Part shown: positions 1-9,000 of the stretch, in pieces | Position numbering within the stretch: the stretch's first letter is position 1 | How the letters are laid out: every line of letters starts with the position of its first letter | Assembly (NCBI RefSeq): GCF_003018255.1 | Contig: NZ_CP027440.1 | Source of the DNA: Escherichia coli | GTDB taxonomy: Bacteria; Pseudomonadota; Gammaproteobacteria; Enterobacterales; Enterobacteriaceae | Direction: 5' to 3' (one strand) | DNA length: 64,000 nt | Made by a program: the position numbers

Positions 1-3000
1 ATCAGTGTGATGGCCACGGCGCTGAACAGTAATGTCAGAGGAGGCAGTATGCCGCAATTAACTGCAACGGAAGCCGCCGTGCAGGAGAACCAGCGAGTGA
101 TGGGGATCCTGACATGCCAGGAAGCGAAAGGACGTGAACAGCTTGCCACGATGCTGGCAGGACAACAGGGCATGAGCATTGAACAGGCCCGGGCGATTCT
201 GGCCGCGGCAGCACCACAGCAGCCGGTGGCATCCACGCAGAGTGAAGCCGATCGCATTATGGCGTGTGAAGAAGCGAACGGTCGTGAACAACTGGCGGCA
301 ACGCTGGCGGCGATGCCGGAGATGACGGTGGAAAAAGCCCGCCCGATCCTGGCTGCTTCACCGCAGGCGGATGCAGGCCCCTCACTTCGTGATCAGATTA
401 TGGCTCTGAGTGAGGCGAAAGGGGCTGAGGCGCTGGCTGAAAAACTGGCGGCGTTTCCCGGAATGACTGTGGAGTCTGCCCGAGACATGCTGGCCTCATC
501 GTCGGATAAAGCAGAACCGGTCTCTGCATCCACAACCGCCCTGTTTGAACGGTTCATGGCGAACCATTCACCGGCAGCGGTGCAGGGTGGCGTGTCACAG
601 GCGTCAGCAGACGGTGATGCGGACGTGAAAATGCTCATGGCCATGCCATGAAGTCAGTGCTGACCATCAATACGAGGTTTTAACAATATGGTGACGAAAA
701 CCATCACTGAACAGCGTGCGGAAGTACGTATTTTTGCCGGTAATGATCCGGCTCACACTGCTACAGGCAGCAGCGGGATTTCTTCTGCAACACCGGCTCT
801 GACGCCCCTGATGCTGGATGAAGCCAGCGGGAAACTGGTGGTCTGGGACGGACAGAAAGCCGGTAGTGCGGTTGGCATACTGGTACTGCCGCTTGAAGGC
901 ACAGAGACGGTGCTGACCTATTACAAGTCGGGGACCTTTGCGACGGAGGCAATCCACTGGCCTGAACGTGTGGATGAACACAAAAAGGCCAACGCCTTTG
1001 TCGGCACAGCCCTGAGTCACGCGGCGCTGCCGTAACACGTTATCAGGCCGCCGCGTTGGCCTGACTGATTTCTGAATGAAAGGAACTGATTTATGGGATT
1101 GTTTACGACCCGCCAGTTACTCGGTTATACCGAACAAAAAGTGAAATTTCGTGCGCTGTTTCTGGAACTGTTTTTCCGCCGTACGGTGAATTTCCACACC
1201 GAAGAGGTGATGCTGGACAAAATTACCGGAAAAACGCCGGTGGCAGCCTATGTATCCCCGGTTGTTGAAGGAAAAGTGCTGCGTCATCGTGGTGGTGAAA
1301 CCCGCGTGTTACGTCCGGGCTACGTCAAGCCGAAACACGAATTTAATTACCAGCAGGCGGTGGAGCGCCTTCCAGGTGAAGATCCGGCGCAGCTGAACGA
1401 CCCGGCCTACCGTCGTCTGCGTATCATCACCGATAACCTCAAACAGGAAGAGCATGCCATTGTCCAGGTGGAAGAAATGCAGGCGGTGAATGCCGTGCTG
1501 TATGGCAAATACACCATGGAAGGGGAGCAGTTTGATACTGTCGAGGTGGATTTCGGGCGCTCTGAAGGAAATAACATTGAGCAGGCTGATGGTAAAAAAT
1601 GGTCTGAGCAGGACCGTGATACGTTTGATCCGACGCATGATATTGACCTCTACTGCGATCAGGCCAGCGGTCTTGTGAATATCGCCATTATGGACGGTAC
1701 GGTCTGGCGTCTGCTGAATGGCTTTAAGCTGTTCCGCGAAAAACTGGATACCCGTCGCGGCTCAAATTCACAACTCGAAACGGCAGTGAAAGACCTGGGA
1801 GCGGTGGTGTCTTTCAAAGGGTATTACGGCGATCTGGCTATTGTGGTGGCGAAAACGTCTTATGTGGCAGAGGACGGTACCGAAAAACGTTATCTGCCAG
1901 AGGGCACGCTGGTCCTGGGAAATACGTCAGCAGAGGGGATCCGTTGTTACGGTGCCATTCAGGATGCACAGGCGTTGTCCGAAGGTGTGGTGGCTTCTTC
2001 CCGTTACCCGAAACACTGGCTGACCGTGGGCGATCCGGCCCGTGAATTCACCATGACGCAGTCTGCACCGCTGATGGTGCTGCCGGAACCGGATGAGTTT
2101 GTGGTGGTACAGGTGAAATAATCCGGGAGCGGGGGCGAAATGCCCCCGTGTCTTTTTTCACAGGGGGCTGAGATGGCAACAAAAGAAGAAAATCTGAATC
2201 GTCTTCGTCAACTGGCTGGTCTGCTGGGGCGCGAGGCGGATATGTCGGGGAGTGCTGCGGATATTGCTCAGCGTGTGTCTGAGTGGGAAGAGGAGCTTGC
2301 TGCTTCCCGGGAGGACATTATGCACTCTGATGAGAGCGGGTCTGACCAAAATTACACAGACGATGGTGAGCCGTTGAACAACACGGATGCTCCGGATGAT
2401 GTTAAAGCCGTCCGTGTGCGCAAGTGCCTGCATGTGATGGGGTATTGCCCGGAGACAGGCCGTCCTGTTGAGCTTACGTTCCGGGGGATGCGTGTTCTGG
2501 TGCCATCATCACTGGCAATGGCCATGATACAGCACGGAACGGCTGAGTATGCGTGATTTTCAGAATGCCTTTGATGCCGCCCTTGCGGGGGTGGACAGCA
2601 CGATTGTTGAAGTGATGGGGATCCGTGCGCAGTTCACCTCCGGAGCACAGCGTGGCGGTGAAGTTCTGGGGGTTTTTGACGATCCGGAGTCGCTGGGTTT
2701 TGCCGGTGGCGGGGTCCGTATTGAAGGAAGCAGCCCGTCATTATTTGTGCGGACGGATACGGTCCGTGCCGTGCGGCGTGGTGACACGCTGACCATTAAC
2801 GGCGGGATGTTCTGGGTGGATCGTGTTTCTCCGGATGACGGGGGCAGCTGTTATCTCTGGCTCAACCGTGGGCAACCACCCGCTGTTAACCGGCGACGAT
2901 AAACGCAGGGTGAAATTATGGCGATAAAAGGGCTTGATCAGGCGATTGACAATCTGAGCCGGGTTCGTAAAAACGCCATTCCGGCGGCTTCAGCAATGAC

Positions 3001-6000: not shown

Positions 6001-9000
6001 AGAGCGCATGCTGACGCTCTCCAGAGCCGGGCAGGCGGCAGGGCTGACGTTTAACCAGGCGGGAGAGTCACTGGCAGCCCTGGTCAGTGCCGGTGTGCGT
6101 GGTGGTGAACAGTTTGATGCCATTAACCAGAGTGTGGCGCGTTTTGCGTCTGCCTCCGGTGTGGAGGTGGACAAGGTTGCAGAGGCTTTCGGAAAACTGA
6201 CCACCGACCCGACGTCGGGACTGATGGCGATGGCGCGCCAGTTCCGTAACGTGACGGCGGAGCAGATTGCGTATGTTGTTCAGCTGCAGCGTTCCGGAGA
6301 CGAGGCCGGTGCCTTACAGGCGGCGAACGATATTGCCACGAAAGGCTTTGATGACCAGACCCGCCGCCTGAAAGAGAACATGGGGACGCTGGAAACCTGG
6401 GCGGATAAAACAGGAAAGGCGTTCAAATCGATGTGGGATGCCATTCTGGATATCGGTCGTCCTGAATCCTCAGCGGATATGCTCGCCAGTGCGCAGAAGG
6501 CATTTGATGAGGCGGATAAAAAATGGCAGTGGTACCAGAGCCGGAGCCAGCGCCGCGGTAAAACCTCCTCTTTCCGGGCCAACCTTCAGGGTGCATGGGA
6601 TGACCGGGAAAATGCCCGTCTGGGGCTGGCGGCGGCAACGCTGCAGTCGGATATGGAAAAAGCCGGTGAACTGGCGGCAAGGGACAGGGCTGAGCGTGAG
6701 GCGTCACAGCTGAAGTATACCGGAGAGGCGCAGAAAGCGTATGAACGCCTGTTGTCGCCGCTGGATAAATATACCGCCCGGCAGAAAGAGCTGAATCAGG
6801 CCCTGAAAGACGGGAAAATCCTGCAGGCAGATTACAACACGCTGATGGCGTCGGCGAAAAAGGATTATGAATCAACGCAGAAAAAACCGAAGTCGTCAGG
6901 TGTCAGAGTGTCAGCCGGGGAGCGTCAGGAAGACCGGGCGCATGCAGCCCTGCTTGCCCTTGAAGCTGAACTCAGGACGCTGGAAAAACACAGCGGTGCG
7001 AATGAGAAAATCAGCCGGCAGCGCCGTGATTTATGGAAGGCAGAAAGTCAGTATGCGGTCCTGAAAGAGGCTGCCACGAAACGACAGTTATCCGGGCAGG
7101 AAAAATCCCTGCTGGCTCATGAGAAAGAAACGCTGGAGTACAAACGCCAGCTGGCTGAGCTGGGTGACAAGGTTGAATACCAGAAACGGCTGAATGAGCT
7201 GGCACAGCAGGCGGCACGGTTTGAAGAGCAGCAGAGCGCGAAGCAGGCCGCCATCAGCGCAAAAGCCCGTGGTCTCACTGACCGTCAGGCGCAGCGGGAG
7301 TCTGAAGAGCAGCGTCTTCGTGACGTGTATGGCGATAATCCGCAGGCGCTGGCCCGGGTCACCGGGGCACTGAAACAGACATGGGCGGATGAAGACATGC
7401 TGCGCGGTGACTGGCTGGCCGGGCTGAAGTCCGGCTGGGGTGAGTGGACGGAAAGTGCGACGGACAGTTTTTCGCAGGTTAAAAGTGCTGCCACGCAGAC
7501 CTTTGACGGTATTGCACAGAATATGACGGCGATGCTGACCGGTGCAGAGGCAGACTGGCGGGGATTCACCCGTTCGGTGCTGTCCATGATGACAGAAATC
7601 CTGCTTAAACAGGCCATGGTGGGCATTGTCGGACGTATCGGCAGCGCCATTGGTGGTGCTTTCGGTGGTGGGGCGTCTGCCTCCACGGGGACGGCCATTG
7701 AGGCTGCGGCGGCGAACTTCCATTTTGCGACCGGCGGATTTACGGGCACGGGCGGCAAATATGAGCCTGCGGGGATAGTTCACCGCGGGGAGTTTGTCTT
7801 CACGAAGGAGGCAACCAGCCGGATAGGTGTGGGGAATCTTTACCGCCTGATGCGCGGCTATGCGGAAGGGGGGTATGTGGGTGGTGCCGGAAGTCCGGCG
7901 CAGATGCGGCGGGCGGAAGGTATTAATTTTAATCAGAACAATCACGTGGTGATTCAGAACGACGGTATCAACGGACAGGCGGGGCCGCAGCTGATGAAGG
8001 CGGTGTATGACATGGCCCGCAAGGGGGCGCAGGATGAGCTCCGGCTGCAGTTGCGTGATGGCGGTATGTTATCAGGGAGCGGGCGATGAAAACCTTTCGC
8101 TGGAAAGTGAAGCCGGATATGGAGGTGAACTCGCAGCCGTCGGTGCGTGAAGTGCGTTTTGGTGACGGGTACTCACAGCGTATGGCGGCAGGGCTGAATG
8201 CTGACCTGAAAACATACCGGGTGATGCTTTCCGTGAGCCGGGAGGAGGCCCGGCATCTGGAAGCGTTCCTGGCAGAGCACGGGGGCTGGAAGGCATTTTT
8301 GTGGAAGCCACCCTATGCATACCGGCAGATAAAGGTGACCTGTGCCGGGTGGTCTGCGCGGGTCGGGATGTTGCGCGTTGAGTTCAGCGCGGAGTTTAAG
8401 CAGGTGGTGAACTGATGCAGGATATTCACGAAGCAAGCCTGAACGAGTCGGTTAAATCAGAGCAGTCACCGCGGGTGGTGCTCTGGGAAATCGACCTGAC
8501 GGTGCAGGGCGGTGAGCGGTATTTTTTCTGCAATGAGCTGAATGAAAAAGGGGAGCCGGTGACCTGGCAGGGGCGTGAATATCAGGCGTACCCGATTGAG
8601 GGGAGTGGCTTTGAGATGAACGGAAAGGGCAGCAGTGCCCGCCCGTCGCTGACGGTGTCCAATCTTTTCGGCCTTGTCACCGGGATGGCGGAGGATTTGC
8701 AGAGCCTGGTGGGGGCCACGGTGGTCCGTCGCCGGGTGTATGCGCGTTTTCTTGATGCGGTGAACTTTGTGGCAGGCAATCCTGAGGCCGACCCGGAGCA
8801 GGAGCTGACGGACCGGTGGGTGGTGGAGCAGATGTCAGCGCTGACGGCCATGACGGCCTCGTTTGTGCTGGCGACACCGACGGAGACGGACGGTGCGCTG
8901 TTTCCCGGTCGCATCATGCTGGCGAACACCTGTATGTGGGATTACCGGGGCGATGAATGCGGGTATAACGGTCCGGCAGTGGCGGATGAGTTCGACAACC

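Follow-up and report, generated by a model that had tools for sequence, protein, structure and literature searches.

We analysed 64,000 nucleotides of the chromosome of Escherichia coli (NCBI RefSeq assembly GCF_003018255.1, contig NZ_CP027440.1), hereafter called the window, in which the head and tail genes of a lambda-type phage occur twice. The first set, module A, lies in the late half of a prophage inserted at potB (prophage 1), and the second, module B, lies in a prophage inserted at icd (prophage 2). The two prophages are separated by 12.9 kb of core chromosome. The features of the window are collected in Table 1. An earlier note on this DNA had described the modules as paralogues in direct orientation and had proposed that they are substrates for RecA-mediated deletion or duplication of the core genes between them and for exchange of tail modules. 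To evaluate these ideas, we compared the two modules with each other, compared both prophages with their relatives, and considered the results in the light of published recombination rates.

Two modules with one gene order

Both modules contain the same eleven genes, from C/Nu3 to H, in equal order, with open reading frames (ORFs) of similar size and all on the + strand. The members of each pair belong to common PHROG families (phrog_53, 49, 6020/2353, 92, 82, 27, 37, 41, 42 and 24/4498; E from 1e-29 to 0). This order is that of the lambda late operon (J02459), which also has in common with both modules the GGGAAAG slippery site for the -1 frameshift between G and T. In module A the lambda order continues through M, L, K, I and J. 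The H gene of module B is cut by the window end, with 518 of its 853 amino acids (aa) in view, and for the H-J portion past this point we used the prophage of strain 0-4 as a stand-in; here, too, M-L-K-I-J follow H. The strain 0-4 prophage is 99.76% identical to prophage 2 without gaps and 100% identical over the last 14 kb of the window (50000-64000), a match that is also found in genomes besides strain 0-4.

Table 1. Positions of the prophages, modules, genes, sites and blastn high-scoring segment pairs (HSPs) in the window
Feature	Position	Strand	Content or basis
Prophage 1, late (right) half	1..17500	+	C/Nu3 (cut) to J, then Hok, side tail fibre, DUF4376 and YkgJ-like moron; right end adjoins potB; colinearity with RM7190, PHROG matches
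Module A	1..8089	+	C 1-651 (cut by window start), D 688-1035, E 1093-2121, FI 2173-2556, FII 2549-2902, Z 2918-3493, U 3490-3885, V 3893-4642, G 4658-5089, G-T to 5529, H 5510-8089
G-T -1 frameshift slippery site GGGAAAG, module A	5065..5071	+	G GGA AAG register; -1 frame open to T stop; 290-aa fusion
M, L, K, I, J of prophage 1	8086..14371	+	M 8086-8415, L 8415-9113, K 9124-9867, I 9864-10445, J 10685-14371
Hok/Gef-family toxin ORF	14570-14710	+	46 aa
Side tail fibre gene	14855-16513	+	
YkgJ-family gene	17585-17914	-	
Core chromosome between prophages	18080..30942	unspecified (.)	potB, potA, pepT, roxA, phoQ, phoP, purB, hflD, mnmA, nudJ, rluE, icd
potB	18080-18943		287 aa
Prophage 2	31056..64000	+	int, exo, bet, DLP12-type nin/Q/porin/lysis segment, Nu1 to H (cut by window end)
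int of prophage 2	31056-32198	-	
exo of prophage 2	33803-34483	-	
bet of prophage 2 (Red-beta, Rad52-like recombinase)	34480..35265	-	TIGR01913 bet_lambda, 169.6 bits (cut-off 76.95)
Ser/Thr protein kinase gene	36493-37539	-	immunity region of prophage 2
ORF beside kinase gene	37533-37994		153 aa
DLP12-remnant gene set	41700-51200		
OmpC-family porin gene	47969-49066	-	
cosN of prophage 2	51904..51915	+	12 nt, GGGCGGCGACCT, upstream of Nu1; region 99% identical to lambda left end
Module B	56320..64000	+	C 56320-57639, D 57649-57981, E 58037-59062, FI 59104-59502, FII 59514-59867, Z 59879-60457, U 60454-60849, V 60857-61597, G 61613-62035, G-T to 62451, H 62444 to >64000
G-T -1 frameshift slippery site GGGAAAG, module B	62011..62017	+	in register; -1 frame open to T stop; 279-aa fusion
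HSP 1 (E)	1309-2111 vs 58254-59052		67.9%
HSP 2 (FII-Z)	2721-3174 vs 59686-60135		75.1%
HSP 3 (Z 3' end to mid H)	3350-6483 vs 60314-63417	+	3.1 kb, longest in-window homologous block; 77.8%, E = 0
HSP 4 (H)	6698-7074 vs 63614-63990		83.0%

Comparison of module A with module B by blastn gave four colinear HSPs on the same strand at an offset of about 56.94 kb, with similarity well above chance. Together with the ORFs and the PHROG families, this bears out the claim that C/Nu3 to H occur twice on one strand approximately 57 kb apart. The similarity between the copies is mosaic, and the stronger divergence that had been claimed for D, E and FI was confirmed when identity was measured in 250-nt windows. 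It was 82-88% in T and the N-terminal part of H, 58-68% in E, about 52% in D and 43-47% in FI; C was not alignable. There was no blastn match between the modules for the C, D and FI pairs, whose local protein identities are 41% (over 99 aa), 58% and 29%, respectively. From FII to the window end the modules are 72.8% identical over 4.55 kb. The G-T region and the N-terminal half of H had been called close at the nucleotide level. They are indeed the most similar part of the modules, but a 250-nt window reaches at most 88% (88.4% for the best one within the window, and 88.8% for the best one in the part beyond it, from the stand-in), and the best 100-nt window between the modules is 96% identical.

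Perfectly identical tracts are short. In the window, 14 tracts are 20 bp or longer; 10 reach 23 bp, eight reach 27 bp, six reach 34 bp and two reach 40 bp, and no tract is as long as 50 bp. The longest are 49 bp (4815/61770), 46 bp (5819/62753) and 39 bp (6020/62954), all in HSP 3, with a further tract of 23-49 bp at 6347, and the number of tracts of at least 34 bp rises to eight when the stand-in region is added. The repeat had been taken to be limited to positions 1-8089. This did not hold, since homology to strain 0-4 extends past H into M, L, K and I and ends two thirds of the way along J, at window position 13,132, with 75-78% identity, so that the window end truncates the repeat. The total shared stretch, from FII to two thirds of J, is approximately 10.5 kb long with about 4.5 kb of it in the window; identity is about 73% overall and 75-83% in the blastn blocks, with mismatches spaced only a few bases apart.

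Origin of the two prophages

To place each prophage, we sought relatives among 5,426 complete E. coli genomes. The best one for prophage 1 was the Stx2a prophage between potC and potB of E. coli O91 strain RM7190; none of the genomes matched both prophage 1 and the last 14 kb of the window. The prophage 1 part of the window is colinear with this prophage at 98.8% identity, and identity rises to 99.4% over the first 9 kb, module A included. Module A and the right end of prophage 1 thus resemble the long-tailed Stx prophages at potB/potC, with the same potB junction. The RM7190 prophage carries Stx2a; the stx region of prophage 1, if there is one, falls outside the window. Compared with lambda DNA, module A is about 73-80% identical, which marks it as lambdoid and not as lambda. 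With lambda taken as the known system, the figure is about 73-78% for DNA and 29-58% for the C, D and FI proteins in local alignments.

Module B has a different affiliation. Over the 12 kb from Nu1 to H, prophage 2 matches phage lambda J02459 at 99.0% identity, and the two also have cosN in common. Prophage 2 contains int, xis, exo-bet-gam, an immunity region, O and P, followed by the DLP12-type segment, cosN and Nu1-H. It differs from lambda in that it is inserted at icd and not at attB (gal-bio), and in having the DLP12-type nin/Q/porin/lysis segment. Wild lambda-like phages (4A7, 1W, 3W and Perceval) resemble prophage 2, with approximately 95-98% identity. Prophage 2 carries the morphogenesis genes of lambda itself, and prophage 1 the version common in long-tailed Stx-converting phages.

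The location of both modules on one strand and in one gene order is what would also be seen if they were true paralogues that arose by duplication within the chromosome and later diverged, as the word "paralogous" had implied. The data refute this. The copies match two different phage or prophage lineages, each at 99% identity or more, and synonymous divergence between the copies (dS) is 0.6-2.6 in every gene, which is near saturation, with the highest values in D and FII. Moreover, each copy is in a complete prophage that has its own integrase and its own attachment site, potB/potC for one and icd for the other (the integrase of prophage 1 being known through its RM7190 relative), and strains exist that have just one of the two prophages. 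We therefore give an in-chromosome duplication practically no chance.

A second idea is that recent gene conversion between the resident prophages explains why T, the N-terminal part of H, and K are so similar. Identity over 250 nt peaks at 86-89% in these three places, and dS is lowest, at 0.6-0.8, in G, H and K. However, a recently copied patch is difficult to reconcile with the absence of any identical tract above 49 bp and with a best 100-nt window of 96%. In addition, 99% identity to lambda holds along all of module B, and 99.4% identity to the RM7190 type along all of module A, so no patch appears to have been copied across. Older exchanges between lambdoid lineages would account for the peaks, as would stronger constraint on the genes concerned, and we consider recent conversion to be very improbable.

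Together, these data indicate that the window very probably represents ordinary multiple lysogeny, that is, two independently acquired, co-oriented lambdoid prophages with old homologous modules that do not form a strong recombination hotspot. The twofold occurrence of the head and tail genes follows from the presence of a canonical lambda late operon in each prophage. Paired modules are the norm: where a genome has an A-type module at all, the median number of such places is two and the maximum is 13. The configuration is already known, and lambdoid mosaicism and rearrangements driven by prophages have both been amply described.

Recombination between the modules

As quoted by De Paepe (2014, PMC3945230), RecA needs an identical segment of 31-34 bp for efficient pairing, and Red-beta one of 23-27 bp. 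The earlier note had proposed that the modules act as long direct repeats, in which case unequal crossing-over by RecA would delete or duplicate the potAB-phoPQ-purB-icd interval at a biologically relevant rate. Several observations are in line with this. The copies are direct and colinear, and six tracts in the window are at least 34 bp long, about the minimal pairing size for RecA. Large rearrangements flanked by prophages are also documented in E. coli O157:H7, where, as here, several lambdoid prophages per chromosome serve as repeats for intrachromosomal recombination (Fitzgerald et al. 2021, PMC8743559). The note had named the lack of any identical tract long enough for homologous recombination as a reason to drop its proposal. 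The tracts escape this narrowly because they exceed the 31-34-bp RecA pairing segment, but the substrate that they make is poor.

The comparison with O157:H7 shows how poor it is. Most events in that serotype were inversions, and the prophage homology used to map them spanned at least 5-8 kb (PMC8743559). By contrast, the modules studied here are direct repeats of about 73-78% identity with no tract longer than 49 bp. An efficient substrate for RecA/RecBCD would be a near-identical repeat on the kilobase scale, and this pair is not of that kind. A divergence of 4% already lowers chromosomal recombination about 1,000-fold (Martinsohn 2008, PMC2327257), and divergence lowers plasmid recombination about 10,000-fold (PMC3945230). 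At 22% divergence, RecABCD recombination is 100-fold below that by Red. Furthermore, the Chi site GCTGGTGG was absent from both strands of the prophage sequence, module A and module B included (1-17500 and 31001-64000; 50.5 kb), whereas the 13.5-kb core has three Chi sites at 18173, 28488 and 29023. Given standard RecBCD biology, the lack of Chi in the repeats means that RecBCD entering at a break would not be expected to switch to recombination there.

The genome survey points in the same direction. The phoP-purB segment is present in 5,425 of the 5,426 genomes and nearly always in single copy (5,431 places in total, hence at most six extra copies), and no rearranged product with the flanked interval deleted or duplicated was found among these finished genomes. 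A deletion would remove purB, icd, phoPQ and mnmA, and because of the cost of losing purB, icd and phoPQ it should be selected against. It would also be expected to create a hybrid element, with its left end from prophage 1, its right end from prophage 2 and attachment sites that do not match. From all of this, recombination between the copies by host RecA/RecBCD in a resting chromosome would be very rare. RecA-driven deletion or duplication is thus possible but weakly supported, and we regard it as unlikely that it occurs at a biologically relevant rate.

Co-oriented cos sites could move the intervening chromosome by another route, namely packaging from cos to cos and hence transduction. The cosN sequence GGGCGGCGACCT is identical in prophage 2 and in the RM7190 relative of prophage 1 (locus L004, 38080-38091). 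However, the cos site of prophage 1 is outside the window, and the relative would put the two sites about 57.2 kb apart. Lambda can package roughly 51-52 kb at most. Since about 57 kb is above the capacity of a lambda head, we rejected cos-to-cos packaging of the core segment, which we hold to be highly improbable.

Published rates favour phage-encoded recombination for DNA of this divergence. For 800-bp repeats in lambda with 22% divergence, the rate per generation is 8.7e-7 with RecABCD and 9.0e-5 with Red (PMC2327257), and Rad52-like recombinases are 100-fold better than the RecA pathway on 78%-identical inverted repeats. A cross of phage phi80 with a 79%-identical region of 980 bp, in which the longest identical tract is 41 bp, yielded 8e-7 recombinants per phage (PMC3945230). 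For lambda crossed with Rac (88% identity, longest tract 49 bp) the value is about 2e-6, and this drops 13-fold when red-beta is deleted and is unaffected by deletion of recA (PMC3945230). The divergence of about 22% and the tracts of 41-49 bp in these homeologous mosaics match the pair studied here, with the difference that the published rates were measured in phage-by-prophage or intra-phage crosses and this pair is known from sequence alone.

Recombination of this kind calls for two things. The first is a co-resident Rad52-like recombinase with its exonuclease, which prophage 2 provides. Its bet product scores well over the family cut-off, and the identical gene in strain 0-4 carries the RefSeq label "bet"; exo and gam are likewise annotated in that identical prophage. 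The second is a suitable substrate, in which 800 bp or more are about 78% identical or better and identical tracts are no shorter than 23-27 bp. The 3.1-kb block is 77.8% identical, and 10 tracts are 23 bp or longer. If exchange takes place, it would most likely occur after induction, during replication of phage DNA, through single-strand annealing by the Red proteins (bet/exo) that prophage 2 encodes, and it would give hybrid tails and not a chromosomal rearrangement. The idea of tail-module exchange is therefore plausible in itself, but published data favour phage Red over RecA for DNA so diverged. Red of prophage 2 during lytic growth would be the more plausible route, being better supported than RecA in the resting chromosome.

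Module exchange is real in the lambdoid family and already well described. Among the relatives, strain 2014C-3097 and phage 1720a-02 show natural mosaic joints inside the tail module. The phage has an A-type tail behind a head of HK97 type, unlike that of prophage 1; its identity to module A is 83% in V and 96-97% from H onward, so that it represents a third lineage in V-G-T that joins A-type sequence from H. In the potB prophage of 2014C-3097, an unrelated head and tail shaft module is joined to the same J-to-attR end. Hybrids of A and B were sought among related phages and none was found; PhiR5_1 is A-type throughout. On induction, Red of the icd prophage might recombine, at a detectable rate, the V-to-J region with its counterpart in the potB prophage, whose closest relatives are Stx2a phages. 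The expected products are hybrid phages with the early or cargo region of one parent and the tail tip, and so the host range, of the other and, more rarely, cells with the 57-kb interval deleted or duplicated. We put this forward as a rather doubtful prediction.

Several points weigh against the reading of two separate lysogenies that seldom recombine through the host. The left half of prophage 1, which would hold its cos site and any stx genes, is beyond the window and is represented by a 99.4%-identical relative. Similarly, the H-J portion of prophage 2 past the window end is represented by strain 0-4 at 99.76-100% identity. The exo protein of prophage 2 scored 55.4 bits and is thus under the NCBIfam cut-off of 68.05. 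Several of the identical tracts exceed the minimal pairing length for RecA, so RecA events could still take place. Finally, a limitation of surveying finished genomes is that such a survey is blind to rare variants within a culture.

Accessory genes and significance of the pair

The core between positions 18,100 and 29,600 is 100% identical to that of strain JNE23-011, a strain that has no prophage at potB/potC. Next to prophage 1, the product of potB is 287 aa long, compared with 285 aa in a prophage-free strain (NZ_AP045067.1). This suggests an attachment site that extends into the 3' end of potB, which the prophage would replace with an end of its own. At the extreme right end of prophage 1, beside potB and on the opposite strand, is a gene for a YkgJ-family cysteine-cluster protein. 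It is kept in all relatives at the potB site and had no match in NCBIfam or PADLOC.

Other accessory genes of prophage 1 follow J. A short ORF for a toxin of the Hok/Gef family separates J from the side tail fibre gene. A scan of the whole window with Rfam at gathering thresholds found no family, Sok included, and a tRNA scan of the window found none. The side tail fibre protein has collagen-like repeats, and its NCBIfam matches are the collagen-like adhesins Lcl and Scl, every one of them under its cut-off. In the potB prophage of strain 2014C-3097 (NZ_CP027449.1), an ompC porin gene is located between the tail genes M and L (11961-13124).

Prophage 2 contains the full gene set of the K-12 DLP12 remnant, comprising emrE, the ybcK serine recombinase gene, ybcL, ybcM, ybcN, ninE, ybcO, rusA, quuD, the porin gene, essD/rrrD/rzpD and iss/bor. 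The OmpC-family porin gene within it is intact. With this set, prophage 2 is apparently a full-length lambda-type prophage that carries the DLP12 genes. The immunity region of prophage 2 contains a gene for a Ser/Thr protein kinase, for which the best PADLOC matches were mad6 (8e-49) and PD-T4-6 (1.5e-36). The gene probably represents a moron for anti-phage defence. No match was obtained for the 153-aa ORF beside it.

The value of this pair of modules is one of calibration. With 22-27% divergence, identical tracts of at most 49 bp and no Chi site, a pair of this kind should count neither as a rearrangement hotspot nor as a risk for collapse of the assembly. Any exchange between such modules is more likely to be driven by the phage, through Red, than by the host, through RecA. 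More speculatively, if the potB prophage carries stx, its host range could change through a swap of tails with a lambda-type phage resident in the same cell.

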